Below, piece by piece: positions 5,708 through 55,215 of a stretch of DNA of 64,000 nucleotides. The DNA is from Clostridia bacterium (GTDB lineage Bacteria; Bacillota; Clostridia; Oscillospirales; CAG-272). How positions within the stretch are numbered: the stretch's first letter is position 1; every line of letters starts with the position of its first letter. The notes beneath the pieces are model-generated. The model worked only from the letters and a program-made list of their open reading frames with translations. It ran no database searches and was not told the origin of the DNA. The stretch lies in assembly GCA_017428635.1 (NCBI GenBank), contig JAFRQK010000046.1, positions 4,874-68,873 of the forward strand, given 5' to 3'. A program made the translations under genes and the position numbers.

Positions 5708-6886
5708 TCACGCGAAGAACGTGAGGAATACGCCCGCGGCGACCGCGGATCCGATAACGCCCGCGACGTTCGGTCCCATCGCGTGCATCAAGAGGAAGTT
5801 CGACGGGTTTTCCTTCTGTCCCACGACCTGCGAGACGCGCGCCGCCATCGGAACGGCGGAAACGCCGGCCGACCCGATAAGCGGATTGATCTTGCCCTTC
5901 GTGAGCACGTACATGAGTTTGCCGAGGAGCAGTCCGCCGCACGTGGAGATCGCAAACGCGCAAAGGCCGAGAACGATGATGTAAAGAGTCGTCGGAGACA
6001 GGAAGTTCTCCGCGTTGGCGGTCGCTCCGACGGAGACGCCGAGAAAGATCGTGACGATGTTGATCAGTTCGTTCTGCGCCGTCTTCGACAGACGGTCCGT
6101 AACTCCGCACACGTTGAAAAGGTTTCCGAGCATCAAAAAGCCGACGAGCGGCGCGGCGCTCGGGACGATCAGGGTCACGACGAGCGTGACGAGGATCGGG
6201 AATACGACCTTTTCAAGCTTGGAGACGGGGCGCAGAGTCTTCATCACGACCGAGCGCTCTTTCTTCGTCGTGAGAAGTTTCATGAGCGGCGGCTGGATTA
6301 TCGGTATCAGCGCCATATAACTGTACGCCGCTATCGCTATCGCGCCGAGCAAGACGGGAGCGAGGATCTTCGTGACGAGGATCGCGGTCGGTCCGTCCGC
6401 GCCGCCTATGATGCCGATCGAAGCCGCGGCGTTGGGCGTGAAGCCGATGAAGATCGCGCCGGTGAAGGCGACGAAAACGCCGAGCTGCGCCGCCGCCCCG
6501 AGGAAGAGCGACTTGGGATTCGCTATCAGCGGCGAGAAGTCGGTCATCGCGCCGACGCCCATAAAGATCAGCGACGGATAGATGCCGAGTTTTACGCCGA
6601 GATAAAGGAAATCAAGCAGCGAGCCCTCGCTTATGACTGCCACGATGTCGACGTGATCCGCAAGGAAGAACTTTTCCATGTGGAACAGGTCGGCGCCGGG
6701 AAGGTTTGCGAGCAGCATTCCGAACGCGATCGGGAGCAGGAGCAGCGGCTCGAACCCCTTTTTGATCGCGAGGAAGAACAGCACGCCGATGATGACGTAC
6801 ATTATCAGAGTCTTTATCAGGTGCGCGGGATCGGAAACAAGCTGCGCTATGCCCGTAGACTCGAAAAAATCATATATAAACTGCAA
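5708..6886 (-). CDS. Na+-translocating decarboxylase beta subunit
   Basis: 392 aa polytopic membrane protein with OadB/GcdB/MmdB-like sequence throughout. Confidence 0.9.
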   Translation of the reverse strand: MQFIYDFFESTGIAQLVSDPAHLIKTLIMYVIIGVLFFLAIKKGFEPLLLLPIAFGMLLANLPGADLFHMEKFFLADHVDIVAVISEGSLLDFLYLGVKLGIYPSLIFMGVGAMTDFSPLIANPKSLFLGAAAQLGVFVAFTGAIFIGFTPNAAASIGIIGGADGPTAILVTKILAPVLLGAIAIAAYSYMALIPIIQPPLMKLLTTKKERSVVMKTLRPVSKLEKVVFPILVTLVVTLIVPSAAPLVGFLMLGNLFNVCGVTDRLSKTAQNELINIVTIFLGVSVGATANAENFLSPTTLYIIVLGLCAFAISTCGGLLLGKLMYVLTKGKINPLIGSAGVSAVPMAARVSQVVGQKENPSNFLLMHAMGPNVAGVIGSAVAAGVFLTFFA

Positions 6887-7712: not shown

Positions 7713-9218
7713 TCAGAGCGACGGGGTCGGGTGACGGCGCGCGTTCCACGCGCCGGACTTGCCGGACGTCATATAGATCGCGGAGCAGATACGCTGACGG
7801 ATCTCGCTCGGGGCTATGATCTCGTCGATCTCGCCGGAGGACGCCGCCTCGGCGGGGTTCGCCACGGTTTCGTCCCAGATCTTTTCAAGCTCCTCGCGGC
7901 TGACCTCCGCGGTGATATCTTTGTTTCTGAGGAACGCGACGGCGGCGGGCGCGGGCATCGCCGCGATCTTCGCCGATCCAAGCGCCATCACGACGTCGGC
8001 TCCGATCGCTTTGGAGGCGAGGACCGCGAACGCGGTGCCGTACGCCTCGCCCGTTATAAGCGTGACGAGAGGCGTCGACGCCGACGCGTAGGCGGCGGCG
8101 AGTTTCGCGAGACTCGACGCGTAAGGAGCGCTCTCCGCGTCGGCGGACTTTTCAAGGCCCGAGGAGTCGACGACGGTGAGGACGGGGATATTGAGCCCGT
8201 CGAAGAAGGACACGACGCGCGCCGCTTTCCTCGCGGCGTCCGATGTGAGAAGTCCTCCGCCCGCCGAGCCGTTCGACGCGACGACGCCGGTCGGCACTCC
8301 GCCGAACGAGCAGAGGCCCGTGACGATCTCGGGGGCGCACTCAGCGTAAAGCTCTATGAACTTGCCGTCGTCCGCGACGGAAGAAAGGAGCTCTTTCGGA
8401 TCGCGCGAGGCAAGATACGACGAGACGTCGACCGTTCTGTTCGCATCGTCGGGAGTGTCGATAAGAAGACCGCCGGACTCGTTGTTGTCGGGCAGGTACG
8501 GAAGAAGAGAACGAATCGCTTTCACGGCCGCGCCGTCGTCCGCGACCCTGCCGCAGACAGCGCCGGACGATGCGGAGAACTCCGCGCCGCCCGCTCCGTC
8601 CGTCAGGAACGGAGGAGAAACGGAGATCGAACCGTCCCCGTCGACGATGAGGGAGATATCGAACATGGAGGCGATCACCGCAGAAGCACCGGAGCAGTAA
8701 CCGGGAATGACGGCGATCTGCGGGACGACGCCCGACGCGCGGGAGGACGCCCTCATGATCCTGCCGTATCCGGCGAGCGCTCTGACGCCCTCGGGGATGA
8801 ACGCCCCGGAGCTGTCGAAGAAACCGACGACGGGAGCGCCGTTCTCGGCCGCGAGACGGTAGATCTCGCAGATCTTCTTGGCGTGCGCCTCGCTGACCGC
8901 GCCGCCCGTGCGGGAGAGGTCCTGCGAGAAGGCGAAGACGAGGCGGCCGCCGACGGAACCCCATCCGGTGATCACGCCCTCGAATTCGTCGGGTTTCTCC
9001 CCGTCGAACTCGCTCATCCTGCGTCTGACGAACGCGCCCGTTTCGGTAAACGTGCCCGCGTCGAAGAGCGCGGTGAGACGCTCTTTCGCCGAGAGTTTGC
9101 CCTCGGTGGGCGTAAATTCGTTTTCGGTCTGCGAGAGGAAATCACGGAACGCCCCGATCGTCATTCTGCCCGTTTTTTTCAGGGCGGACACGAGGCCGTT
9201 CAGATCGAAATTATCCAT
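7713..9218 (-). CDS. Acyl-CoA carboxyltransferase (methylmalonyl-/glutaconyl-CoA decarboxylase alpha type, 12S-like)
   Basis: 501 aa carboxyl_trans-domain sequence (GKLSAKERL...GVITGWGSVGGR...FSQDLSRTGGA...). Confidence 0.85.
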   Translation of the reverse strand: MDNFDLNGLVSALKKTGRMTIGAFRDFLSQTENEFTPTEGKLSAKERLTALFDAGTFTETGAFVRRRMSEFDGEKPDEFEGVITGWGSVGGRLVFAFSQDLSRTGGAVSEAHAKKICEIYRLAAENGAPVVGFFDSSGAFIPEGVRALAGYGRIMRASSRASGVVPQIAVIPGYCSGASAVIASMFDISLIVDGDGSISVSPPFLTDGAGGAEFSASSGAVCGRVADDGAAVKAIRSLLPYLPDNNESGGLLIDTPDDANRTVDVSSYLASRDPKELLSSVADDGKFIELYAECAPEIVTGLCSFGGVPTGVVASNGSAGGGLLTSDAARKAARVVSFFDGLNIPVLTVVDSSGLEKSADAESAPYASSLAKLAAAYASASTPLVTLITGEAYGTAFAVLASKAIGADVVMALGSAKIAAMPAPAAVAFLRNKDITAEVSREELEKIWDETVANPAEAASSGEIDEIIAPSEIRQRICSAIYMTSGKSGAWNARRHPTPSL

Positions 9219-9261
9219 TTGTTCTCTCTGCCTCCGTTTTTTGCGTTTATTATAATATTAT

Positions 9262-22424: not shown

Positions 22425-22690
22425 AAAAATAAAACCCTGTCCTGATAATCAGGACAGGGATCGAAATCTCTGCGGTACCACCTGAATTCATCCGGGATCG
22501 CCGGATGCTCTCTTCCGCGTACATACTATACGCTGTCCGCTGTAACGCGCGGCGCGCGTCTTCCCTACCCCCTTCCGGGATCGGGTCGCCCTCACGGGTC
22601 CATTCGTCCGGCATCCGTCACCGCCTCGCACTGACCGGCGGCTCCCTTGAGACGTCACGCTGGATTACTACTCCCGCTCATCGGTTTACG
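22425..22690 (-). promoter_or_regulatory. T-box leader, probable Trp specifier (UGG)
   Basis: Minus strand carries the T-box sequence AATTCAGGTGGTACCGCAG, followed by terminator CCCTGTCCTGATTATCAGGACAGGGTTTTATTTTT. A GAA-UGG-A specifier-like triplet sits at 22602..22600. Confidence 0.75.
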
Positions 22691-45349: not shown

Positions 45350-45436
45350 GCGGATATGGCGGAATTGGCAGACGCGCTAGATTCAGGTTCTAGTCGGGGC
45401 AACTCGGTGAAGGTTCAAGTCCTTTTATCCGCACCA
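45350..45436 (+). tRNA. tRNA-Leu (anticodon CAG), CCA encoded
   Basis: Manual cloverleaf: acceptor GCGGATA/TATCCGC, anticodon arm CTAGA-TTCAGGT-TCTAG, long variable arm, T-loop GGTTCAAGTCC. Confidence 0.9.
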
Positions 45437-45557: not shown

Positions 45558-45854
45558 ATGAATCTGAACATTGGTAACATTGGAGTCTGGGGATTCCGGC
45601 ACTATGATTATCTCAAGCAAAACCGCCCGTCAACCGTCGGTGTGATGCGCATGAACGGAACGCTTGAAGGGTATCTCAAAGAGGTCAATCAAGAAGCAAC
45701 GGAAATGCTTGAAACGCTTATCCGGCAATATGCAAAGGCGGAAGGCGTCACGGAGGCACTTAAACGCACAGATCAACTCGGCTGGGTGCTAAAAATGAAC
45801 TCCATCCGCAACCGCGCCGAAGAGGTTATACTAAACGAAATCATATACCGGTAA
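45558..45854 (+). CDS. TnpV-like transposon protein (N-terminally short)
   Basis: 98 aa. ...YLKQNRP...GTLEGYLKEVNQEATEMLETLIRQYAKAEGVTEALKRTDQLGWVLKMNSIRNRAEEVILNEIIY matches, from memory, the C-terminal roughly 90 aa pattern of TnpV of Tn4451-type elements. Confidence 0.55.
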   Translation: MNLNIGNIGVWGFRHYDYLKQNRPSTVGVMRMNGTLEGYLKEVNQEATEMLETLIRQYAKAEGVTEALKRTDQLGWVLKMNSIRNRAEEVILNEIIYR

Positions 45855-46835: not shown

Positions 46836-47249
46836 TTATTTCACGGCACTTGTTTTATCAGATTGTTTATTACGACTGCTTTTCCACTCTTCAAATTCGC
46901 GTTTTCCTTCTTCTGATTCAAAAAACGCGCGGATATCGGGGAGCATATCGTCCACTATAGCTTGCAGGACGTATTTCGGCACATTGCATTCAGCGCGACG
47001 CTCGCGGAATGTATATTTGAATTGTACACGCAGCCGTGCCCAGAAACCGCCGTGTTCATACTCCTGAATGTCCTTCCAGTACGGCTCCAATCGTTCGGCA
47101 ACAGCTTTTTTGAACTCCCGGTCGATCTCCGCAGCCCGACCCTCGCCGAGCATTTCCGCAACCCGCTTCCTGCCGTACTGCTTCTCCATTTCAGCCAGTT
47201 GGCGCTTCACTTCAAATATCGTGTATTTCTGTAATATCTCTTTTCCCAT
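46836..47249 (-). CDS. Hypothetical protein (mobile-element backbone gene?)
   Basis: 137 aa with higher G+C than its neighbours. It lies directly downstream of structured-repeat copy L, mirroring how the recombinase sits downstream of copy R. Confidence 0.6.
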   Translation of the reverse strand: MGKEILQKYTIFEVKRQLAEMEKQYGRKRVAEMLGEGRAAEIDREFKKAVAERLEPYWKDIQEYEHGGFWARLRVQFKYTFRERRAECNVPKYVLQAIVDDMLPDIRAFFESEEGKREFEEWKSSRNKQSDKTSAVK

Positions 47250-47261
47250 AAATGTCTCCGT

Positions 47262-47498
47262 TCCTGCGGGGTATTAGGGGTGCGGGTGTCCGGTGGACAC
47301 CTCTGCCGGAGGCAGAAGCACCGACCGAGGCGGCAGCCGAGACCTCGCTAACAAGCAGCTGACGAGGCAGGCGTTGTGTTTGCGCAAGCAAACGCGATGC
47401 TTGCCGAAGTAATGCCGGGTATTTGGCTATCCAATTACGTTGCTTGTGAAGGTGTGCCGCCGGATTTGTACGTACAAATCCAGTGCTTGCTAAAACAA
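47262..47498 (-). ncRNA. Structured repeat, copy L (candidate leader/ncRNA)
   Basis: Its reverse complement aligns with 53242-53540. Conserved blocks are separated by hairpins whose differences are compensatory. Confidence 0.5.
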
Positions 47499-47511
47499 AC
47501 ATATTATATTG

Positions 47512-48444
47512 TTAATTGTTATTGTTTTTTATGTTGTGCTCTTCAATGTATTTCAAAAGTTTTGGTTCAGTCATTACTTCGTCATATTGAGACAAGTGCA
47601 TTTGCATACCTTTAATATCGGAAACTGCATCTTTTACAAAGGTCTCGAAGTCTGTATTTGTTTCTACTAATCTATCAACAGTATCCCAATCTATTTTCTC
47701 TCTTTCTCTAGCAGAAAACAATATCTCGCTCTGCTCAATATTTTCAGCATTCAACTTAATGAACCCAATGCCAAATGCATTATTTAATCTAAGCATTTCT
47801 TCGTATAGTTCAGTATCATCCTCATATGATAAAGCAACGAGGTATCCTTCATTTGCCCAGCTTGAATTAGATACAGCCTGAAAGAAATATTCACGTAGAT
47901 TTGAAAAGCAAATTGTTTTTTTTAATTCAAACGAAAACAATTTGAATTTGCTGTCATTTAACGCTTCCAGTAAATTCGTCGTCTGTTGCGAATAGTCATT
48001 GAATGGAAAGTAAACTCCAACCATATCTGGATGAAGCCACTCGTTCTCCCCGCGTTTCTTCTTCTTAGATTTTTCGTGGAAAATCGTTTTCGTTACACAG
48101 TTAAAATGACCATCTGCATAAACAAAACTCGCTAACAAAGGGTGAAGGTCTCTTTCCTTAAAACTTAATTCATCATTGGTTACTTCCGATGTCTTTTTAG
48201 GAACAATGCTTAGATCTTTAATGTAAAAAGTTGCAGGCCTTTTACTGTATTGATATAACCTTGATTGAGGATTATCTCGTATATCAAGATAAACTCTGGC
48301 CGCAATAGTTTTTACTGGAGTTTTTCCAATTGATGATAGTTTATCCCTAAACCCGTATTCTCCAGCTTTCTTCCATATTTCTTCAATGGAAAGCGGAGAT
48401 TGATGCTTTTCGAGTGTCAAATATACTAAATCAAGAAAAGTCAT
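47512..48444 (-). CDS. HARE-HTH domain protein with C-terminal PD-(D/E)xK-like nuclease domain
   Basis: The N-terminus LSIEEIWKKAGEYG...GKTPVKTIAARVYLDIRDNP...FYIK looks HARE-HTH-like. The C-terminus has ERDLHP...WLHPDMVGV...FSFELK...QAVSNSSWA (D...ExK...Q). I use the ATG at 48444; the track ORF starts at GTG 48450. Confidence 0.6.
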   Translation of the reverse strand: MTFLDLVYLTLEKHQSPLSIEEIWKKAGEYGFRDKLSSIGKTPVKTIAARVYLDIRDNPQSRLYQYSKRPATFYIKDLSIVPKKTSEVTNDELSFKERDLHPLLASFVYADGHFNCVTKTIFHEKSKKKKRGENEWLHPDMVGVYFPFNDYSQQTTNLLEALNDSKFKLFSFELKKTICFSNLREYFFQAVSNSSWANEGYLVALSYEDDTELYEEMLRLNNAFGIGFIKLNAENIEQSEILFSAREREKIDWDTVDRLVETNTDFETFVKDAVSDIKGMQMHLSQYDEVMTEPKLLKYIEEHNIKNNNN

Positions 48445-48454
48445 TTCCACACCC

Positions 48455-48931
48455 CTAAATCTTAGGTATCATTGTCGATGCTTCGGGAGCATTTTTAGTG
48501 ATGCTCCAAACAGCAACCTTCATCTTTTTGATACGCTTTCCGTCGCCGAAATCAAGCAAGTCTTCTCTTTTATAAACATTGAGTATTTTGTTCAAGGTTC
48601 CAAGATCCGCTGAGGTCATTAAAAAAGCTTCTTCCGGATCTATCAATTTGCAATACGCCCATAACTGACCCAGATCTCTAAGCGTTAAACTTGTAATTTT
48701 AGCCTCGATGAAAAAGAGCTTAAATCCTTTAGCATTCCTGACAATACCAAGCACATCTATTTGGATATCAATTCCAGTAGCAACGTCGTGGACAATACCA
48801 TATCTGCGTAAGACTCTGTCGAGCCTTTCGCTATGCGCATCCACAACAATCACTTCGTCATTTTTATATTTGTCTTTTAAGTACGTTTCCAACCATTGAC
48901 ACATAGGTGGATATAAGTCAAATTCTTTCAT
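48455..48931 (-). CDS. Small PD-(D/E)xK-type nuclease-fold protein
   Basis: 158 aa containing GIDIQIDVLGIV...KLFFIEAKI (D-x-n-E-x-K), the restriction-endonuclease-like core pattern. Confidence 0.5.
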   Translation of the reverse strand: MKEFDLYPPMCQWLETYLKDKYKNDEVIVVDAHSERLDRVLRRYGIVHDVATGIDIQIDVLGIVRNAKGFKLFFIEAKITSLTLRDLGQLWAYCKLIDPEEAFLMTSADLGTLNKILNVYKREDLLDFGDGKRIKKMKVAVWSITKNAPEASTMIPKI

Positions 48932-48936
48932 TTAAT

Positions 48937-49824
48937 TTACTCTCCATACCCAAGCGCTGCCGCAATATCTTTCCAGGAATTATAGTGGTTTCCCTTGATT
49001 TCAACAGGCAGAAAATCGTCATTTTCTCCAGGATGTATCGGTTTAACTTTTGTTTTTCCCGCACCTTCCCAATAATACTTATGTGTTACATCCTCGACTC
49101 TTTTTCCTTCATCGGCAAGGCCGTTTTTCAATTCATTAGAAAACTGATCTAATGCTTCTCGTTTATGGATTACACCAAACCCGACCGGAACAAATTCATT
49201 AGCCCATATTTTGATCTGGTGCTCTTTTTTCCAAAAATCCGGCTTTCCTTCATTGTACTTTGATAAATTTCCATCGCGCATATTAGGATGTGCCCAATCT
49301 ATTGCTTGAACCGGAATGTCCACATCTTTCAGCAATTTGCAAACATCTACTACCAAATACCAATTATGCGGCACTTCAATGTACACTCTATGCATATATG
49401 GCTTAAAGAAATAGTTGCTTCTTCTAATGTAACCTGTAACATCAGCAAAACCTTGAAGGAAAGAAATCTTTTGATCTCTTGAGAATCGAAACACCTCGTT
49501 ATCAATCCTTATGTTTTCATGAGAAGCAGCATTTCCAACAAATCTAATTATTTCTCGCATTAAATAGTCATCATTTGGCTTAACAAACGAAATAATCGAA
49601 TAGTTATCCTGTTGCGTGAACGATAATCCCGTTCCAACAAGTGGCTCGATGATTGAACGTATATCAGTTATACTGGCTCGAACATAAATTCTGACATCGT
49701 TATTGTTTTCTGTAGCAAGTTTTTTGTGTGGAATTTCAATGGAAATTGTCGTCTCAAATTGTCCCCTTTTTATTTCGCCGTTTCCGCATATCATTCCAAG
49801 CAAATATGACATTTCTCTATTCAT
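48937..49824 (-). CDS. Hypothetical protein with two degenerate LAGLIDADG-like motifs
   Basis: 295 aa. SYLLGMICGNGEI (aa 6-18) and ISFLQGFADVTGYI (aa about 119-132) are spaced like a two-domain LAGLIDADG enzyme. The canonical acidic residues are replaced (N and T). Confidence 0.4.
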   Translation of the reverse strand: MNREMSYLLGMICGNGEIKRGQFETTISIEIPHKKLATENNNDVRIYVRASITDIRSIIEPLVGTGLSFTQQDNYSIISFVKPNDDYLMREIIRFVGNAASHENIRIDNEVFRFSRDQKISFLQGFADVTGYIRRSNYFFKPYMHRVYIEVPHNWYLVVDVCKLLKDVDIPVQAIDWAHPNMRDGNLSKYNEGKPDFWKKEHQIKIWANEFVPVGFGVIHKREALDQFSNELKNGLADEGKRVEDVTHKYYWEGAGKTKVKPIHPGENDDFLPVEIKGNHYNSWKDIAAALGYGE

Positions 49825-49841
49825 TAGCTATCTCCACTCTC

Positions 49842-50189
49842 TCAATTCAAACCGATTTTGTAACCAATTTTGAGTAATTCTGAAATCACCCCATTATCAT
49901 TTAAGCGATATTTATACTCGCTTCGATACACAGTATTGCGAGTAAACATCTTTAATAATGCAGTTGGTGGCGTTTCGGGAACATAAAGGCGTAATTCAAG
50001 TCCCCATTTATTAGCGTTGTTTTCAAGAAGTATGATTCCTTCACTTTGATCATCAATTCTTCCCCTATGAGTAGCGTTGTAATTAATAATAAAGTTGTTA
50101 ATTGCTCCCGGCTTTCCTTCGGCTTCAATAAAGAATGAATTACCTTTTGAAGAAATATCACGCAAAAAATCGATCAGTTTGTCTATCAT
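49842..50189 (-). CDS. Hypothetical protein (about 115 aa), weak paralogue of neighbouring ORFs
   Basis: I place the start at ATG 50189 behind AAAGGAG (MIDKLIDFLRDISSKGNSFFIE...). The LRLYV...RLNDNGVISELLKIGYKIG pattern resembles ORF 50203..50658. Confidence 0.55.
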   Translation of the reverse strand: MIDKLIDFLRDISSKGNSFFIEAEGKPGAINNFIINYNATHRGRIDDQSEGIILLENNANKWGLELRLYVPETPPTALLKMFTRNTVYRSEYKYRLNDNGVISELLKIGYKIGLN

Positions 50190-50202
50190 AAATAAAACTC
50201 CT

Positions 50203-50658
50203 TTACAAATTATAGCCTTTTTCAAATTCATCCATTAGATGTGGATGGTGTTTTCTTACTGCATCACGAATAGCAACAACATCCTGGTATTCTCCAAATG
50301 AAAAACCATAGTCACGAACCACTTTTTCAACAAATTTACCCTTATTTATGCGTTTAACATATGATCCTGTGCCCACTCCAAGAAAAGGAATAAGCACTTG
50401 TGGACAGTTTCGGATGTTATGGAAATATATACGCAATTGGCATCCTTGTTTCATAACATTCCCACCGGTTGTCTCGCCCTGTGTTATCGGGAAATATGGC
50501 GCATTGGGGAACTCTCTTTCAAAAATGAACCCCTTCTCTTCAGGGATTTGAGCTTCGATCAATCCTATACGACCCGGTGCCGCAAGGTATCCCAAGATTA
50601 AACATAGGTCTTTTTCAGGTACTGAAATATCTAAAGCACGATTGCTCAATAGTGACAT
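50203..50658 (-). CDS. Hypothetical protein (151 aa), weak paralogue of neighbouring ORFs
   Basis: LILGYLAAPGRIGLIE (LAGLIDADG-like helix). LRIYFHNIRNCPQVLIPFLGVGTGSY resembles VRIYVRASITDIRSIIEPLVGTGLSF of ORF 48937..49824. Confidence 0.55.
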   Translation of the reverse strand: MSLLSNRALDISVPEKDLCLILGYLAAPGRIGLIEAQIPEEKGFIFEREFPNAPYFPITQGETTGGNVMKQGCQLRIYFHNIRNCPQVLIPFLGVGTGSYVKRINKGKFVEKVVRDYGFSFGEYQDVVAIRDAVRKHHPHLMDEFEKGYNL

Positions 50659-50662
50659 GGAC

Positions 50663-51436
50663 TTACTCCTTTATGAATATCAAGAGATATTCGTGTATTT
50701 TATTGATTCTAAATTTATATGGATATCCTAACGGACGCATATTGTTATAATCTTGTTGTCTGTCCCAAATGATTAGGTCGTCATAGACAAAGCCTATGCT
50801 TTTAAGAGCAGACGCCAAATCACTATGCAATGGATAAAAAGAGCTCTTTTTTCTTATATCCATCACATTTACAATGCAGTAAGATCCTTTTTTCAGCACT
50901 CTATGAACAGATGAAAAAAGCGTCGTAAGCGATTGGATAAACTCATCGTAGTTTGGAATATTGCCAATATCGGTTTTTTTATCAGAATAATTTACAGAGT
51001 CTTTTTGATCGGCACTTCTTTTCATATTTAGAATATCCCAATACGGTGGCGAAGTGACGCAAATGTCAAAATAATCATTTGGAAGCGTTTTGAGAACAGA
51101 AAAACTGTCTCCGTTTATAATGCGAATTCCGTTAGTGTTGCCAATGCGATCCATGGCTACCTTACAAAAATCTTCTGATAAATCTATTCCAACCGCTTCA
51201 CGATTCTGCAATTTAGCAGCAACTGTCGTTGAACCAATACCATTGAATGGATCAAGCACCCGTCCGTCCGGTTTAGAAAAAGTACGAATGATCTTTTCAC
51301 ATAATTCTACAGGGTAAGAAGCCGGATGCTTCAATGCCTTTTCTTCTCTTGTTTTTGATATATCTCTCCAAATGCTAAATGAATTCTGGAGCCATTCTTT
51401 TCCAGAAAGGTCGTTACATTTTTTAGAGTTGTCCAT
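50663..51436 (-). CDS. DNA methyltransferase, N4-cytosine/N6-adenine type (PF01555-like)
   Basis: HPASYPVEL...VLDPFNGIGSTTVAA (AdoMet motif I) precedes TSPPYWD (catalytic motif IV). I use the ATG at 51436 behind AAGGTGG; the track ORF starts at TTG 51442. Confidence 0.85.
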   Translation of the reverse strand: MDNSKKCNDLSGKEWLQNSFSIWRDISKTREEKALKHPASYPVELCEKIIRTFSKPDGRVLDPFNGIGSTTVAAKLQNREAVGIDLSEDFCKVAMDRIGNTNGIRIINGDSFSVLKTLPNDYFDICVTSPPYWDILNMKRSADQKDSVNYSDKKTDIGNIPNYDEFIQSLTTLFSSVHRVLKKGSYCIVNVMDIRKKSSFYPLHSDLASALKSIGFVYDDLIIWDRQQDYNNMRPLGYPYKFRINKIHEYLLIFIKE

Positions 51437-52835
51437 CTGCAATCCACCTTTTTGATTGAATCCTTTTCATTTCAGAATCAATGAAATCCGATTCTTTTTT
51501 TGTAATATTATAAGCCGCATATACAATTTGATTTAATTGCTCTAAACTGTTAAACCAATCTTGGTTCATATAGTCATCAGATTCCAAACTGCCAACTAAC
51601 TTCAAGATTTGTTCAAAATACTGATCCTGAAGTTTTCTGCAGGGTAGAGGTATTTTCTTGAGGTATTTCGCATCGGTATGCATAGTCAACTTTGAGTAAT
51701 TGTAACAATACTTGTATAAGAACAAATTGCAAAGTCTGGAGTGTAGTATTCCGAGAATATAGTGACACATTTTCGGATCACCGTCAGTAAAAACCGTAAC
51801 GGTTTGTGAAGCTTCTAAATTCCCGCCGAACGCTGCTATTACACCAGCCTCAGCGCTATATATATTCTGTATAAATAACGTGTTTCCCTCTGTTGGCAAA
51901 TCGTGGTCTTTGTACCCGAATTTCCGAATGTCTTTGCCGGTAATTGCTTCTTTCGATGTTGACCTTCCGCGTCCAACGTATCCATTGCAAACATCATTCA
52001 ATGTTTTATATGAAGTTGATAACTTTTTGTAAATTGAAAAATCTTCAGAACAGTTAAAAATCAAAATTGTGTCATTATAAAAACTTTGTGGAATAGATGT
52101 CATCGTAACAAATCTATTACTTGAGTATTTTTTTATTTTGATTTTATGATTTTTATCAGCTTTAGCATTTTTAATGGTTAAAACAATCTGCTCACCGCGA
52201 ACATGCTTAAAATATGCTCCAAGATCAACAATTGAAACAATAGATTTTTCCTCAAGTAATTCACGCCTAAACAAACTATAAGAATGAACATGAAGAAAAT
52301 TCTTTGGGATAATATATGAAACCAATCCATTGGGCTTAACGAGGTCCAGCGCACGCATGAGAGCCGCAACAAAAAGATTGTTTCCGGAATCCGACACTCT
52401 ACGTCTAAACAAATAATCGGATTGTAATACGACTTCCGAAGTCAACGGGACATATGGCGGGTTTCCTATAATAATATCAGGATGAACGTCTAAACAAAGA
52501 TGCGAAAGAGTGACGGTTGCATCATTGCCAATTGAATCATCGGCCACAAAGAAAGCTCCGTGTATATTGTTGCGGCAAAAATCAATGGCGTTGTTGTCTT
52601 GATCAATTCCATAAACGTTTTCACACCCATGTTTAATTGCAGCATAAACAAATACGCCAGCGCCACAACATGGATCCAAGATCACAGATGATTTATCCGG
52701 ATTAAGTTCAAAAAGCATTTTTTCGGCAAGAGATAAGTCAGTATAATAAATGCCATTGTCCTTTTTAAAATCTGAATCAAGAGAGCTTTCATAAACATTC
52801 GAAGCATCAATATATGCATTCTGAGCAAGTGACAT
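51423..52835 (-). CDS. N6-adenine DNA methyltransferase, gamma class (Eco57I/TaqI-like) with C-terminal target-recognition domain
   Basis: GIYYTDLSLAEKM, ILDPCCGAGVFV (motif I) and IIGNPPYV (motif IV); 470 aa; AAGGAGGG SD. Confidence 0.9.
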   Translation of the reverse strand: MSLAQNAYIDASNVYESSLDSDFKKDNGIYYTDLSLAEKMLFELNPDKSSVILDPCCGAGVFVYAAIKHGCENVYGIDQDNNAIDFCRNNIHGAFFVADDSIGNDATVTLSHLCLDVHPDIIIGNPPYVPLTSEVVLQSDYLFRRRVSDSGNNLFVAALMRALDLVKPNGLVSYIIPKNFLHVHSYSLFRRELLEEKSIVSIVDLGAYFKHVRGEQIVLTIKNAKADKNHKIKIKKYSSNRFVTMTSIPQSFYNDTILIFNCSEDFSIYKKLSTSYKTLNDVCNGYVGRGRSTSKEAITGKDIRKFGYKDHDLPTEGNTLFIQNIYSAEAGVIAAFGGNLEASQTVTVFTDGDPKMCHYILGILHSRLCNLFLYKYCYNYSKLTMHTDAKYLKKIPLPCRKLQDQYFEQILKLVGSLESDDYMNQDWFNSLEQLNQIVYAAYNITKKESDFIDSEMKRIQSKRWIADGQL

Positions 52836-52852
52836 TGTAAGCCCTCCTTCAA

Positions 52853-53074
52853 TTAATTCTGGCTTTTTTCTGTAATGTCCATAATATCGCCGATATTACA
52901 TTCCAAAACACCACAAATCTTCATCATGACTTCCATAGATACCGGTTGATTTTTACTGAGTTTAGACAATGTAGTTGAACCAATTCCTGTAGCTTCTTTT
53001 AATTGCATTTTCTTCATGTTTTTGTCTATAAGCAATTTCCAAAGTTTGTTGTACGTAACAGCCAACAGTATCAC
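52853..53074 (-). CDS. XRE-family HTH protein (controller/C-protein-like)
   Basis: VTYNKLWKLLIDKNMKKMQLKEATGIGSTTLSKLSKNQPVSMEVMMKICGVLECNIGDIMD. It is the first gene of the operon. The true start may be the TTG at 53065, downstream of GAGGTG. Confidence 0.8.
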   Translation of the reverse strand: MILLAVTYNKLWKLLIDKNMKKMQLKEATGIGSTTLSKLSKNQPVSMEVMMKICGVLECNIGDIMDITEKSQN

Positions 53075-53094: not shown

Positions 53095-53162
53095 ATTATA
53101 TCATATCTTCCGATAGAATGCAATATAAAATCGATAATAGAAAAGAAAATTTTCTATTATCG
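53095..53162 (-). promoter_or_regulatory. Operon promoter plus upstream 13-bp-arm palindrome (C-box-like operator)
   Basis: Minus strand reads TTGCAT-17 nt-TATAAT (53123..53095). CGATAATAGAAAA-5 nt-TTTTCTATTATCG (53132-53162) lies just upstream of the -35. Confidence 0.5.
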
Positions 53163-53241
53163 GCAATTATTTTTTCTTTACCTATGGGCAAATCGGCTGA
53201 AATATGATATACTTTTCTTCGCAGAAACAAAGACGCGGCGC

Positions 53242-53540
53242 TGTTTCAGCAAGCACTGGAAAATGTGTACATTTTCCGGCGGTGCTGTTTCGGCAAGCAT
53301 CGTGCTTTGACTCCACCGGAGCAAAACACCACGGCATTGCCTTCACAAGCAACGACTTTGGACTCCCACGTCCAAAGTCAGACTTGCTCGCAGCTCTGCA
53401 AGCATCGCGGAATGATATCATTCCGCACCCGCTTGCTTCGCCCGCCGCTTGTTAGGGAGGTCTCGGCTGCCGGCTCGGTCAGTGCTTCTGCCTACGGCAG
53501 AGGTCTCCACCGGAGACCCGCACCCCTAAAACCCCTGCGA
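53242..53540 (+). ncRNA. Structured repeat, copy R (candidate leader/ncRNA upstream of the recombinase)
   Basis: Homologous to the reverse complement of 47262-47498. A long-range helix pairs AAGCACTG (53251-58) with CAGTGCTT (53480-87), and several internal hairpins show covariation. Confidence 0.5.
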
Positions 53541-53575
53541 AACAATCTTGAGCAGAAGGAGGTGAGAAGAAGAAA

Positions 53576-55045
53576 ATGAAAGGCGTGATCTACGCAAGGT
53601 ATTCCAGCGACAATCAGCGTGAAGAGTCTATCGAAGGTCAGATCCGTGAATGTAAGGCTTTTGCCTACAAAAACGGAATCGACATTATTGAGATCTACAT
53701 CGACCGTGCGTTGTCAGCAAAAACGGATAACCGACCCGATTTTCAGCGGCTGATCAAGGAAAGCGGAAGCAAGAAGTTTGAAGTCTTGCTCGTATGGAAA
53801 CTCGACCGTTTCGCACTGAACAAGTTCGACTCGGCGCACTACAAACGGATCCTGAAAAACAACGGTGTTCGTGTTGTATCGGCAACCGAAGTGATATCGA
53901 CCGGTCCCGAAGGGATCTTGCTTGAATCAATGCTCGAGGGAATGGCGGAATACTATTCAGCCGATCTTTCGGAAAAGGTCATGCGCGGACAGACCGAAAA
54001 CGCACTGAAATGTATGTATAACGGCGGTACGCTCCCAATAGGGTACGTCATCGACAAGGAACAGCACTTTCAGATCGATCCGGTCGCGGCACCGCTGGTA
54101 TTGCAGGCGTTTACCGATTACTCAAACGGCAAGTCGATGCGTGAAGTAACGGACATGCTGAATCTTGCAGGAATCCGCACCAAGCGCGGCGGAAAGGTCA
54201 GCATCAACAGCGTGACGAGAATGCTGCATAACCGCAAGTACATTGGTGAGTATCAATACCGCGACATCGTTCATCCGCACGGAATCCCGGCGATCGTCCC
54301 GGAAGAACTGTTTGAACGCGTACAGGAACGATTGGCTAAAACAAAGAAAGCCCCTGCCAAGTTCAAGGCAGAAGACGAGTATCTGTTAACGACCAAACTG
54401 TTCTGCGGCAAATGCAACTGTTATATGGCGGGAGAATCCGGCACGAGCCACACGGGCATCGTTCATCGGTATTACAAATGCGTGAGCGTGAAGAACCATA
54501 AGGGCTGCGACAAAAAGTCTGTACAAAAAGAGTGGATCGAAAATCTCGTCATCGACCAGATCAAAAAGATCCTGTTCGACGATGAAATGATCGAAAAACT
54601 CGCGGATATGGGCATGGAACGTCAGCGCAAAGAAAACACGGTGCTTCCCATGCTGAAACGCCAGCTTGCCGAAACGGAAAAAGGCATCCGCAACTTCGTT
54701 GACGCGATCCAGCAAGGGATCATCACGGAATCGACGAAGGAGCGGCTTGAAGGGTTGGAAAGAACAAAGAAAGAGCTTTCTGCTCAAATCGCACGGGAAG
54801 AATTACTCCAACCGCCGGAATTCACACGGGATCAGTTCCTGTTCTGGTTCGAGCGGATGCGCAAGTACGACACCACGAAACTCGTTCACCGTCGCCGTCT
54901 GATCGACAGCTTTGTCAACGCGATATACCTTTACGACGACAGGATCACCCTCGTCTTCAATTTCAAAGACGGCACAAAAACGATAACTTTCGCCGAGCTT
55001 GAGGAATCAGGCTTGGGTTCGGATATAAATGCACTCGCTGCATAA
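53576..55045 (+). CDS. Large serine recombinase
   Basis: MKGVIYARYSSDNQ (catalytic Ser), resolvase domain, recombinase domain, zinc ribbon CGKCNCYM...YYKCVSVKNHKGC, and a coiled-coil C-terminus; 489 aa; AAGGAGGTG SD. Confidence 0.95.
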   Translation: MKGVIYARYSSDNQREESIEGQIRECKAFAYKNGIDIIEIYIDRALSAKTDNRPDFQRLIKESGSKKFEVLLVWKLDRFALNKFDSAHYKRILKNNGVRVVSATEVISTGPEGILLESMLEGMAEYYSADLSEKVMRGQTENALKCMYNGGTLPIGYVIDKEQHFQIDPVAAPLVLQAFTDYSNGKSMREVTDMLNLAGIRTKRGGKVSINSVTRMLHNRKYIGEYQYRDIVHPHGIPAIVPEELFERVQERLAKTKKAPAKFKAEDEYLLTTKLFCGKCNCYMAGESGTSHTGIVHRYYKCVSVKNHKGCDKKSVQKEWIENLVIDQIKKILFDDEMIEKLADMGMERQRKENTVLPMLKRQLAETEKGIRNFVDAIQQGIITESTKERLEGLERTKKELSAQIAREELLQPPEFTRDQFLFWFERMRKYDTTKLVHRRRLIDSFVNAIYLYDDRITLVFNFKDGTKTITFAELEESGLGSDINALAA

Positions 55046-55091: not shown

Positions 55092-55215
55092 AGGACTTGA
55101 AGGGCGCGCGTGTCAGAAAACAGTCCGGGGGACTGTTTTCCCGCGCGCTGACCGAGGGAGCGTCATTTTTCGTATTTTGCGAAAAATGACTTCGCGCGAC
55201 CGAGAATCAAGTCCT
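55092..55215 (+). repeat. 124-bp three-helix repeat, copy A
   Basis: Termini AGGACTTGA...TCAAGTCCT are inverted, and there are two long internal hairpins. Homologous to 59093-59215. Confidence 0.7.

Follow-up and report, generated by a model that had tools for sequence, protein, structure and literature searches.

A family of compact GC-rich nested-hairpin elements in Clostridia and their phages, with two, perhaps three, copies in a Tn4451-like island

What are the two look-alike, hairpin-rich stretches that lie in inverted orientation on either side of the cargo of a mobile island in Clostridia bacterium contig JAFRQK010000046.1 (assembly GCA_017428635.1; positions 4,874 to 68,873, a stretch of 64,000 nucleotides referred to below as the window)? 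The original prediction took them for a structured RNA of no known family, a leader or riboregulator of mobile-element genes, with one copy (copy R) upstream of a serine recombinase gene and the other (copy L) upstream of a 137-aa open reading frame (ORF). According to our follow-up, both copies belong to an element family dispersed in gut and rumen Oscillospirales and some Lachnospiraceae chromosomes, phage contigs and small integrative islands. Its members share one fold, nest in tRNA T-loops, differ in presence between homologous loci, and follow neither an orientation rule near protein genes nor a linkage to recombinases. With moderate confidence, we regard the window copies as two, perhaps three, members of an unannotated, compact, GC-rich mobile insertion element of nested hairpins, used locally as leaders of the recombinase gene and the 137-aa ORF.

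The copies, with their cores and helices, are located in the window as follows (z scores compare the folds of the full-length copies with dinucleotide shuffles; R1 is a covariance model built from relatives outside the window):

53242..53540, plus strand: copy R, full extended element (5' hairpin modules, core and C-rich tail), 5' leader of the large serine recombinase gene; z = -5.8
53459..53526, plus strand: copy R core; R1 84.8 bits; hairpins H1 at 53465-53474, H2 at 53485-53503, H3 at 53502-53518
53481-53485 paired with 53520-53524, plus strand: copy R helix P2, from the family structure
53452-53457 (TTAGGG) paired with 53524-53529 (CCCTAA), plus strand: copy R closing helix P1
47262..47498, minus strand: copy L, full extended element, 5' leader of the 137-aa ORF; z = -4.0
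47277..47344, minus strand: copy L core; R1 95.9 bits
47346-47351 (TTAGCG) paired with 47274-47279 (CCCTAA), minus strand: copy L closing helix P1

Copy R and the reverse complement of copy L align over their whole length with 77% column identity, which confirms the predicted resemblance, and similarity peaks in the last ~90 nt. This part contains a 68-nt 3' core, GGTCTCGG...GCACCCC, in which the copies differ at five of 68 positions; two of the five form a compensatory pair in hairpin H3 (GGTCTCC-ACC-GGAGACC versus GGTGTCC-ACC-GGACACC). Both copies possess extra 5' hairpin modules, and their GC content of 0.54-0.56 compares with ~0.35 in the adjoining AT-rich cargo. Across the window the next best R1 match after copy L (95.9 bits) and copy R (84.8 bits) reaches 13.7 bits, and the two copies are therefore no chance similarity. 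The hairpins described in the original prediction, GGAAAATGTGTACATTTTCC, GGATTTGTACGTACAAATCC and GCAAGC...GCTTGC with an inner GCGGAATGATATCATTCCGC, are recovered in the minimum-energy folds. Its long-range closure between AAGCACTG and CAGTGCTT is absent from the minimum-energy folds of both copies and is in competition with helix P2 (GGTGC/GCACC), for which the relatives provide covariation support.

The constant part of the family is 47-75 nt long and reads (G)TCTCG-H1-CTCGGTC-P2[optional H2, H3 with loop ACC]-P2'. In 5' to 3' order, a variable P1 5' strand is followed by (G)TCTCG, H1 (3 bp, loop UGYC), CUCGGUC, P2 (GGUGC), H2 (CUUC...GAGG, variable), H3 (7 bp, loop ACC), P2' (GCACC) and the P1 3' strand, i.e. 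four covarying helices (H1, P2, optional H2 and H3) inside a context-specific closing helix. Alignment A5 comprises 138 distinct instances and is the source of R1. In it, 98.8% of cells form standard pairs, 274 cells are changed on both sides versus 74 ± 6 in shuffles, and the covariation score is 0.31, versus ~0.03-0.06 with partners slid by 1-3 columns. The claim of a structured and conserved element is borne out by this statistically supported covariation in an enlarged alignment.

Because the first search patterns had fixed P2, scans anchored on the H1 region alone, or on the T-loop plus H1, were run. P2 covaries in these P2-free scans (63 distinct sequences), with GGTGC/GCACC in 21, GTTGC/GCAAC in 12, GGCGC/GCGCC in seven and GGGAC/GTCCC in one. 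The length of H2 changes by -2 to +8 nt among members, and many have no H2 at all, giving forms of 47-52 nt; as these length changes are not multiples of three, a coding explanation is excluded, in line with the original prediction, which had favoured a structured RNA over a protein-coding region. Among 73 distinct H2 variants, 48 possess a 3-nt loop and 59 are closed by C-G, and 30 of the 48 loops read UNC. On the complementary strand such a loop is a GNA closed by C-G, the classic hyperstable DNA mini-hairpin.

The closing helix P1 differs between subfamilies: TTAGGG/CCCTAA in that of the window, GAAGGGTG/CACCCTTC upstream of GGACT genes, and CUCCCUC/GAGGGAG, with extra hairpins, in one chromosomal group. 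Complementarity of at least 6 bp is found between an element's own flanks in 47% of cases versus 26% for mismatched flanks, and single-sequence folds close the own flanks. G.U and A.C combinations are about equally common in helix cells (19 versus 16), a balance that does not decide the strand from wobble pairs. Some observations thus lie on the side of RNA (conserved junction nucleotides, an optional variable stem, strict sense orientation in tRNA genes, and CCA plus terminator at locus L118) and others on the side of DNA (random orientation near protein genes, G.U about equal to A.C, minimal loops).

Searching IMG/VR for exact matches to a pattern taken from part of the core gave 22 contigs. 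With a second pattern, 55 viral loci and at least 120 genome loci were recovered; among the genome matches listed are Ruminococcus, Acutalibacteraceae, Oscillospiraceae and other Clostridia metagenome-assembled genomes, Roseburia and [Clostridium] aminophilum. R1 gives 170 matches of at least 42 bits in 156 related loci, and later scans added at least 120 further viral loci (H1-region anchor) and 86 metagenome loci (T-loop plus core start). Some genomes are multi-copy. No match to the element was obtained from Rfam 15 at gathering thresholds for the whole window and 28 related loci, and permissive filters on 351 nt gave noise alone (E ≥2); the predicted lack of a known RNA family is borne out, Rfam 15 being empty at gathering thresholds and at E ≤10. 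BLAST of copy R returned no plasmid match and, among phages, two Ruminococcus phages alone, over 67 nt. Full-text literature searches with core sequence strings gave nothing relevant, and keyword searches on repeats and RNA motifs in these taxa and on bacterial T-loop introns gave no description of the element.

In the deposited Ruminococcus phage PV036433.1 the element is annotated as a 71-aa hypothetical protein (locus L001, 3946-4161), very likely a mis-annotation. Some loci possess same-strand tandem or close arrays of two to three elements with periods of ~65 to 250 nt, and in L188 and L115 one copy begins directly after the CCCGC of the preceding copy:

L119 78-381; L181 2095-2390; L106 6637-6971; L188; L402 123-354: tandem or close arrays

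In L084, L125 and L182 (Bacillota S31_Bin1 and relatives) the flanks are full of other GC-rich palindromes of REP/REPIN-like appearance (repetitive extragenic palindromic, REP), with a GTAGGG start and a CCCTAC end, which suggests a second repeat family in these genomes.

The clearest placement of the element is in tRNA genes. In the Acutalibacteraceae loci L065, L118, L151 and L137 a tRNA-Pro-like gene contains the core in its T-loop, and in viral contigs the core is found within tRNA-Gly-like units. The sequence GGTTYRA stands directly 5' of the core in five of 158 unselected instances versus 0.27 expected (~19-fold, p ~9e-6). The 86 loci of the metagenome scan represent at least ten different T-stem/acceptor contexts. 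The insert position is constant, between T-loop nucleotide 60 and T-stem nucleotide 61, and once the insert is removed in silico, ARAGORN calls tRNA-His(gtg), Ile(tat), Gly(ccc) and Leu(aag). In tRNA loci, every one of the 87 copies (65 pattern-fetched and 22 additional) points in the direction of the tRNAs, with none opposite. Nested copies in the T-loops of viral contigs number three in sense and none in antisense, too few to decide, and an empty-site search for the tRNA-Gly-like unit in viral contigs gave no match.

Loci L343 and L372 contain syntenic arrays of 19-20 tRNA genes among ordinary bacterial genes (GGDEF, two-component system, ferredoxin, AlkZ-like), and four of these genes differ in the insert:

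tRNA-His: interrupted in L343, intact in L372
tRNA-Ile(tat): interrupted in L343, intact in L372
tRNA-Glu(ctc): intact in L343, interrupted in L372
tRNA-Arg(acg): intact in L343, interrupted in L372
L343 1578-1763 and 2925-3075, L372 ~6420-6560 and ~9130-9255: the interrupted tRNA genes, missed by ARAGORN, with a 52-nt insert each

This reciprocal presence and absence amounts to an insertion polymorphism, and since the element is present in one and absent from another of homologous loci, it is mobile on evolutionary time scales. The filled and empty tRNA sites of L343 and L372 show no target duplication, and both interrupted genes of L343 have an identical flanking T-arm (GTGGG TTCGAGG...CCCAC). 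Copy number also differs between L188 (two tandem copies) and L208 (one). In L118 the insert-bearing tRNA-like gene ends in CCA, followed by a terminator. Around the tRNA-Pro of L065 (4400-4445 and 5740-5800), further fragments related to its anticodon arm (GCTTGCTTTGGGCA...) occur, and a structured segment of ~130 nt precedes the interrupted T-arm; these surroundings may represent an RNA gene of larger size that derives from a tRNA and is conserved in L118.

Does this leave room for the predicted link to the recombinase? Copies R and L are indeed sense, both abut a ribosome-binding site, and a Shine-Dalgarno sequence with start codon follows 10-40 nt downstream of them, as it does for all five members of the closest subfamily. 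In the window, the C-rich tail of copies L and R has no anti-Shine-Dalgarno complementarity. The subfamily of the window (L069, L089, L130, L134, L154 and L169) has 5' module, core and tail CCCCTAAAACCC in common and is situated in sense close before a ribosome-binding site, which in several cases belongs to a NikA/MobC-like gene; L069 has no identified downstream ORF. The association does not extend to recombinases in general: among 67 relatives of the recombinase on viral contigs (34-54% identity), none carries the element in its 2.5-kb flanks, by model or by loose pattern, and the reading as a recombinase leader was rejected for this reason.

Orientation relative to flanking ORFs follows no rule in the de-replicated instances (18 co-directional sense, 28 co-directional antisense, 19 convergent and 20 divergent). 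The ORFs nearest to family members, 150 in number, match 140 Pfam families. Amidoligase_2, N6_N4_Mtase, GGACT and ParB_N, a phage and mobile-element set, recur slightly with three to four ORFs each, and many neighbours are housekeeping genes (DnaA, EF-Ts, MetK, SpoIIP); relaxases, Rep proteins and tyrosine integrases are not enriched among the 150. In several phage groups it is the reverse complement of the element that fills the 5' untranslated region (UTR) between a sigma-70-like promoter and the ribosome-binding site, and in the GGACT-DUF3846 slot the element is sense in L001 and antisense in L005. No -10 box is found at a fixed distance from the element on either strand, for which reason a stand-alone small RNA with its own promoter was rejected. 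Given the empty flanks of the 67 relatives, the missing orientation rule, the housekeeping neighbours and the T-loop copies, we regard the leader role as a local use of a far more general mobile module. From the original interpretation, a structured, conserved and unclassified element with a local leader position is retained; a riboregulator specific to the recombinase or dedicated to mobile-element genes is not.

The host island is a ~10-kb Tn4451-like element beside tRNA-Leu, with TnpV, a TnpX-like serine recombinase and restriction-modification cargo. Its features in the window are:

45350..45436, plus strand: tRNA-Leu(cag), left island border, with T-loop/T-stem TCAAGTCCT at 45415-45423
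45558..45854, plus strand: TnpV-family ORF, 98 aa (PF14198; phrog_24764), which marks the island as Tn4451/Tn4453-like
46836..47249, minus strand: 137-aa ORF downstream of copy L, no family match
47512..53074, minus strand: AT-rich cargo between the inverted copies, with a HARE-HTH protein (HTH, helix-turn-helix), ORFs without family match, two DNA methyltransferases and a small HTH regulator
53185..53213, plus strand: promoter-like site TGGGCA-17-TATACT with extended -10 (upstream TG), which would start the copy R leader; consensus match only
53576..55045, plus strand: large serine recombinase (Resolvase, Recombinase and Zn_ribbon_recom), TnpX-like
55092..55215 (124 nt), minus strand: tentative divergent third family member at the right island end; fold z = -5.3, R1 8.9 bits

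Three small minus-strand ORFs follow the TnpV ORF, the last being the 137-aa ORF, and the recombinase gene is followed by a terminator and then by the folded segment 55092-55215. A search for variants of the island carrying other cargo recovered the same island alone. The cargo looks like a Type II restriction-modification cassette: a methyltransferase pair at 50663-52835 on the minus strand (N6_N4_Mtase plus an Eco57I/N6_Mtase type with TaqI_C-like domain) is followed by several ORFs without family, and the adjacent methyltransferases suggest a Type IIS-like system whose site is asymmetric. The element family starts with GGTCTC or GTCTC, a BsaI/BsmAI-type site. Between the small HTH gene (52853-53074) and copy R, a perfect AT-rich palindrome with 14-bp arms (TCGATAATAGAAAAGAAAATTTTCTATTATCGG) is present at 53131-53163; it could be an operator for a controller protein or a bidirectional terminator, and it has a weak, sub-threshold match to traJ_5. 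A T-box leader elsewhere in the window (22447-22690, minus strand, 98.9 bits) is unrelated to the element.

The third copy reads AGGACTTGA|TTCTCGG-long hairpin-CTCGGTC-GCGCGC-(hairpin, 3-nt loop)-GCGCGC-CCT|TCAAGTCCT. It retains TCTCGG, the CTCGGTC junction, a P2-like helix and the hairpin with 3-nt loop, and looks like an H2-less member in which a long hairpin replaces H1. We report it as tentative in view of its R1 score and of the inconsistent P2 register of H2-less forms in the MAFFT alignment. The T-loop/T-stem sequence of the tRNA-Leu is found again in the closing helix of the third copy, AGGACTTGA/TCAAGTCCT: the 9-nt TCAAGTCCT at 45415-45423 recurs at 55207-55215, there followed by degenerate acceptor-like sequence (CTGCCCGCTCC), and the two occurrences are probably the attachment junctions of the island.

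The order at the right end of the window island, i.e. recombinase gene, antisense element and remnant of a tRNA T-loop, is repeated in L030, L036 and L213, whose recombinases are 39-47% identical to that of the window. In these loci the 5' end of the element abuts the reverse complement of a tRNA 3' end, e.g. ...TGGCAGGGGCAGAAGGACTTG|GTCTCG. A TndX-like recombinase gene in L385 lies beside one intact and one interrupted tRNA-Gly(ccc). Placement at an island end by the recombinase gene is thus found for the third copy, L030, L036 and L213; it is found neither for copies L and R nor for most members.

According to the mobile-element reading, the element nests in loops of pre-existing hairpins, of which the tRNA T-loop at 60/61 is the clearest case. 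Its spread may take place as DNA, through site-specific or homology-assisted insertion at hairpins or T-arm-like targets, and serine recombinases whose own islands end in such an element may catalyse the insertion in trans. Candidate routes are recombinase-mediated insertion, gene conversion through T-arm homology and an RNA-mediated route. The leader copies would act only as stable RNA structure, affecting mRNA stability, insulation or translation.

Several observations weigh against this reading. No terminal inverted repeats, target duplication or conserved target beyond the T-loop were seen, and neither transposases nor recombinases are enriched among the 150 neighbour ORFs; a large serine recombinase is present in only 11 of 353 element loci, and the third copy lacks statistical support (R1 8.9 bits, E ~0.9). 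Unpaired junction nucleotides are strongly conserved and one stem is optional and variable, features that are characteristic of functional RNA and that one would not expect of a DNA repeat that is purely selfish. That orientation in tRNA genes is strictly sense could be due to selection at the RNA level, for an intron-like or extra-arm role, instead of DNA targeting. In the window subfamily, all seven of seven copies are sense leaders at a fixed distance from the ribosome-binding site, which fits a domesticated regulatory role.

A first alternative is an RNA-level intervening sequence or extra arm: a small structured insert of RNA genes and UTRs, of a new kind, would be transcribed in sense and then either removed, by self-cleavage, splicing or host RNases as in rRNA intervening sequences, or tolerated as an additional domain at the tRNA elbow 60/61, with the other copies as secondary colonisations. 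We consider this possible, though doubtful. It accounts for the exact 60/61 position with 87 of 87 copies in sense, for the perfect cloverleaves after removal of the insert in genes of chromosomal arrays, tRNA-His(gtg) among them, and for the insert-bearing gene of L118 with CCA and terminator; conserved junctions, an optional stem of variable length and a closing helix are moreover typical of ribozymes and functional RNAs. However, no Rfam ribozyme or intron family matches, no bulge-helix-bulge geometry was seen, G.U cells (19) are no commoner than A.C cells (16), and most hairpin loops have 3 nt, with the H2 loop being a GNA closed by C-G on the complementary strand. Near protein genes, roughly every second copy runs antisense to local transcription, and some copies directly follow a sigma-70-like promoter located on the opposite strand. 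With 47-75 nt the element is also too small for group I or II introns; these were rejected, as the catalytic core (at least ~200 nt, or domains I-VI) is absent and Rfam gives no match. A dedicated cis-regulatory leader RNA, a riboregulator or attenuator acting on translation or stability of mobile-element genes such as the recombinase, is quite unlikely. Copies L and R and those of L089, L130, L134, L154 and L169, sense just upstream of the ribosome-binding site with a common 5' module, core and tail CCCCTAAAACCC, speak for it, as do the promoter-like site before copy R (a consensus match only) and, in the chromosomal subgroup, the pairing of the C-rich tail or an upstream CCCUC with GGGAGG-like sequence. 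The downstream genes are, however, unrelated (recombinase, 137-aa ORF, NikA/MobC-like, GGACT and others), none of the 67 recombinase relatives carries the element, orientation is random across the family with copies between convergent genes and in tRNA T-loops, and the tail in the window lacks anti-Shine-Dalgarno complementarity. The antitermination RNA conAn2 was rejected as well, being poorly conserved and of different architecture.

A further alternative places the function in folded DNA, either as a recombination or attachment site (attC-like or CTX-attP-like, here for serine recombinases targeting T-arms) or as a priming or establishment signal (pLS20 EGeRS1, Frpo, single-strand origins); we judge it unlikely. 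The 5' end of the core abuts the T-loop crossover at recombinase-island ends (third copy, L030, L036, L213), the closing helix is able to form a duplex version of TCAAGTCCT, a segment of the tRNA T-arm, gene cassettes lie between inverted pairs of the element in the window, L102, L147 and L248, and the loops are minimal, with GNA on the complementary strand. EGeRS1 is likewise GC-rich, rich in inverted repeats and located just upstream of ribosome-binding sites of establishment operons (PMC8708921). Nevertheless, many copies occupy ordinary chromosomal intergenic regions far from mobile elements, pairs occur in every relative orientation, recombinase, relaxase and Rep genes are not enriched among the neighbour ORFs, and covarying hairpins are not needed by recombinase attachment sites. 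Chance similarity or a protein-coding repeat can practically be discounted. Overlapping ORFs do exist, e.g. 53265-53579, and the PV036433.1 site is annotated as a hypothetical protein, but scores of 85-96 bits versus 13.7 for the next best, compensatory changes in four helices, non-triplet changes in stem length and copies inside tRNA genes refute it. The mobile insertion element with local leader use is accordingly the reading that we favour. As a bolder proposal, made only tentatively, the family may form a new class of bacterial intervening sequence, a mobile structured RNA/DNA module at T-loop 60/61 and in other hairpin loops that is excised, by self-catalysis or by the host, or kept as a functional extra arm of tRNAs that otherwise work, the same module being used by islands at their T-loop attachment end.

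Clostridia that are abundant in the human gut and the rumen, together with their phages, thus harbour at hundreds of sites a very tightly conserved and strongly covarying element without Rfam entry. If the favoured reading is true, annotation pipelines call the element hypothetical proteins and miss interrupted tRNA genes, e.g. two in L343 (tRNA-His and tRNA-Ile). For bacterial tRNAs whose genes are interrupted in the T-loop, one would have to ask whether they are processed, used as they are, or dead, and Tn4451-like island ends abutting T-loops would offer a handle on how serine recombinases choose tRNA targets. The recombinase 5' leader in the window would be an acquired mobile module, to be weighed in regulatory interpretations.

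The closest concepts among known systems are REP/MITE repeats (MITE, miniature inverted-repeat transposable element), intervening sequences and tRNA introns, and EGeRS1; each shares part of its defining features with the element and none shares all. REP, REPIN and BIME repeats (BIME, bacterial interspersed mosaic element) are similarly GC-rich, extragenic, palindromic and multi-copy, are found in either orientation, commonly behind genes or between convergent ones, and at times stand in tandem; some genomes embed copies of the element among palindromes of the GTAG...CTAC type. They consist of one imperfect hairpin (~20-40 nt, GTAG 5' foot), whereas the element has a branched fold of three to four hairpins in 47-75 nt, Clostridia hosts and insertions in tRNA T-loops. 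GTAGG is present upstream of 16 of 158 copies versus 2% background, and Y1_Tnp, expected for REP-associated tyrosine transposases (RAYT), is not among the Pfam families matched by at least two of the 150 neighbour ORFs. The REP/RAYT reading was rejected: GTAG is enriched, yet most copies lack it. MITEs and modular repeats (BOX, RUP, Correia, Rickettsia palindromic elements) resemble the element as short non-coding stable folds with a core and optional modules that land in UTRs and can change expression there, and Rickettsia palindromic elements can insert into RNA genes. Presence and absence at orthologous sites, as in MITEs, is found at four tRNA genes of L343/L372 and in the copy number of L188/L208. 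In contrast to MITEs, the element has no terminal inverted repeats or target duplication that we could see, is extremely conserved across bacterial families and has a precise, strand-specific position in tRNAs; the ends of its core are weakly symmetric by eye (GTCTCGGCTG.CCGG versus the reverse complement GTGCGGGTGTCCGG). An IS200/IS605-type insertion was rejected, as no conserved 5' target tetranucleotide is visible by eye and TnpA/TnpB-type families are not among the recurring neighbour Pfams.

EGeRS1 of pLS20-family plasmids consists of GC-rich blocks with inverted repeats upstream of ribosome-binding sites of unrelated operons, several per mobile element (PMC8708921). The window copies are likewise GC-rich (54-56% versus ~35% in the cargo), repeated and adjacent to ribosome-binding sites, a likeness of layout. 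The EGeRS1 blocks are 420-750 bp long, belong to Bacillus plasmids, are always oriented with the downstream operon and have not been reported in chromosomes or tRNA genes (PMC8708921), whereas the element family shows neither constant operon orientation nor restriction to transferred elements. Like integron attC sites and CTX-phage attP, the element keeps structure above outer sequence, can have a functional duplex in the closing stem and a variable terminal structure, and flanks cassettes; unlike attC, it shows no R'/R'' boxes, integron integrase or Xer context, has a highly conserved core and was not seen in cassette arrays of single orientation. The attC boxes (RYYYAAC...GTTRRRY) and the window flanks (GTTAGGG...CCCTAA) have opposite arrangements. 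With Tn4451/Tn4453 and the attachment sites of serine integrases, the window shares TnpV, a TnpX-like recombinase and a family member at the island end by the recombinase gene. Insertion by serine recombinases is expected to leave no duplication, and none is seen at the filled and empty tRNA sites. Most copies, however, have no recombinase nearby, and covarying hairpins are no feature of known attachment sites.

Non-canonical tRNA introns differ in their bulge-helix-bulge, which was not seen in the element, and the same element is also present in UTRs and intergenic DNA in either orientation; bacteria are not known to possess the splicing endonuclease. Like these introns and the intervening sequences of rRNA, the element is a sporadic, structured segment that replaces or extends a hairpin loop of a stable RNA and is closed by the host helix. 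Outside bacteria, in archaea and red algae, non-canonical introns are known from T-loop position 59/60-61 (PMC4090602, PMC9602550). As in intervening sequences, an otherwise intact tRNA gene is interrupted at a defined position, and the insert is in sense orientation.

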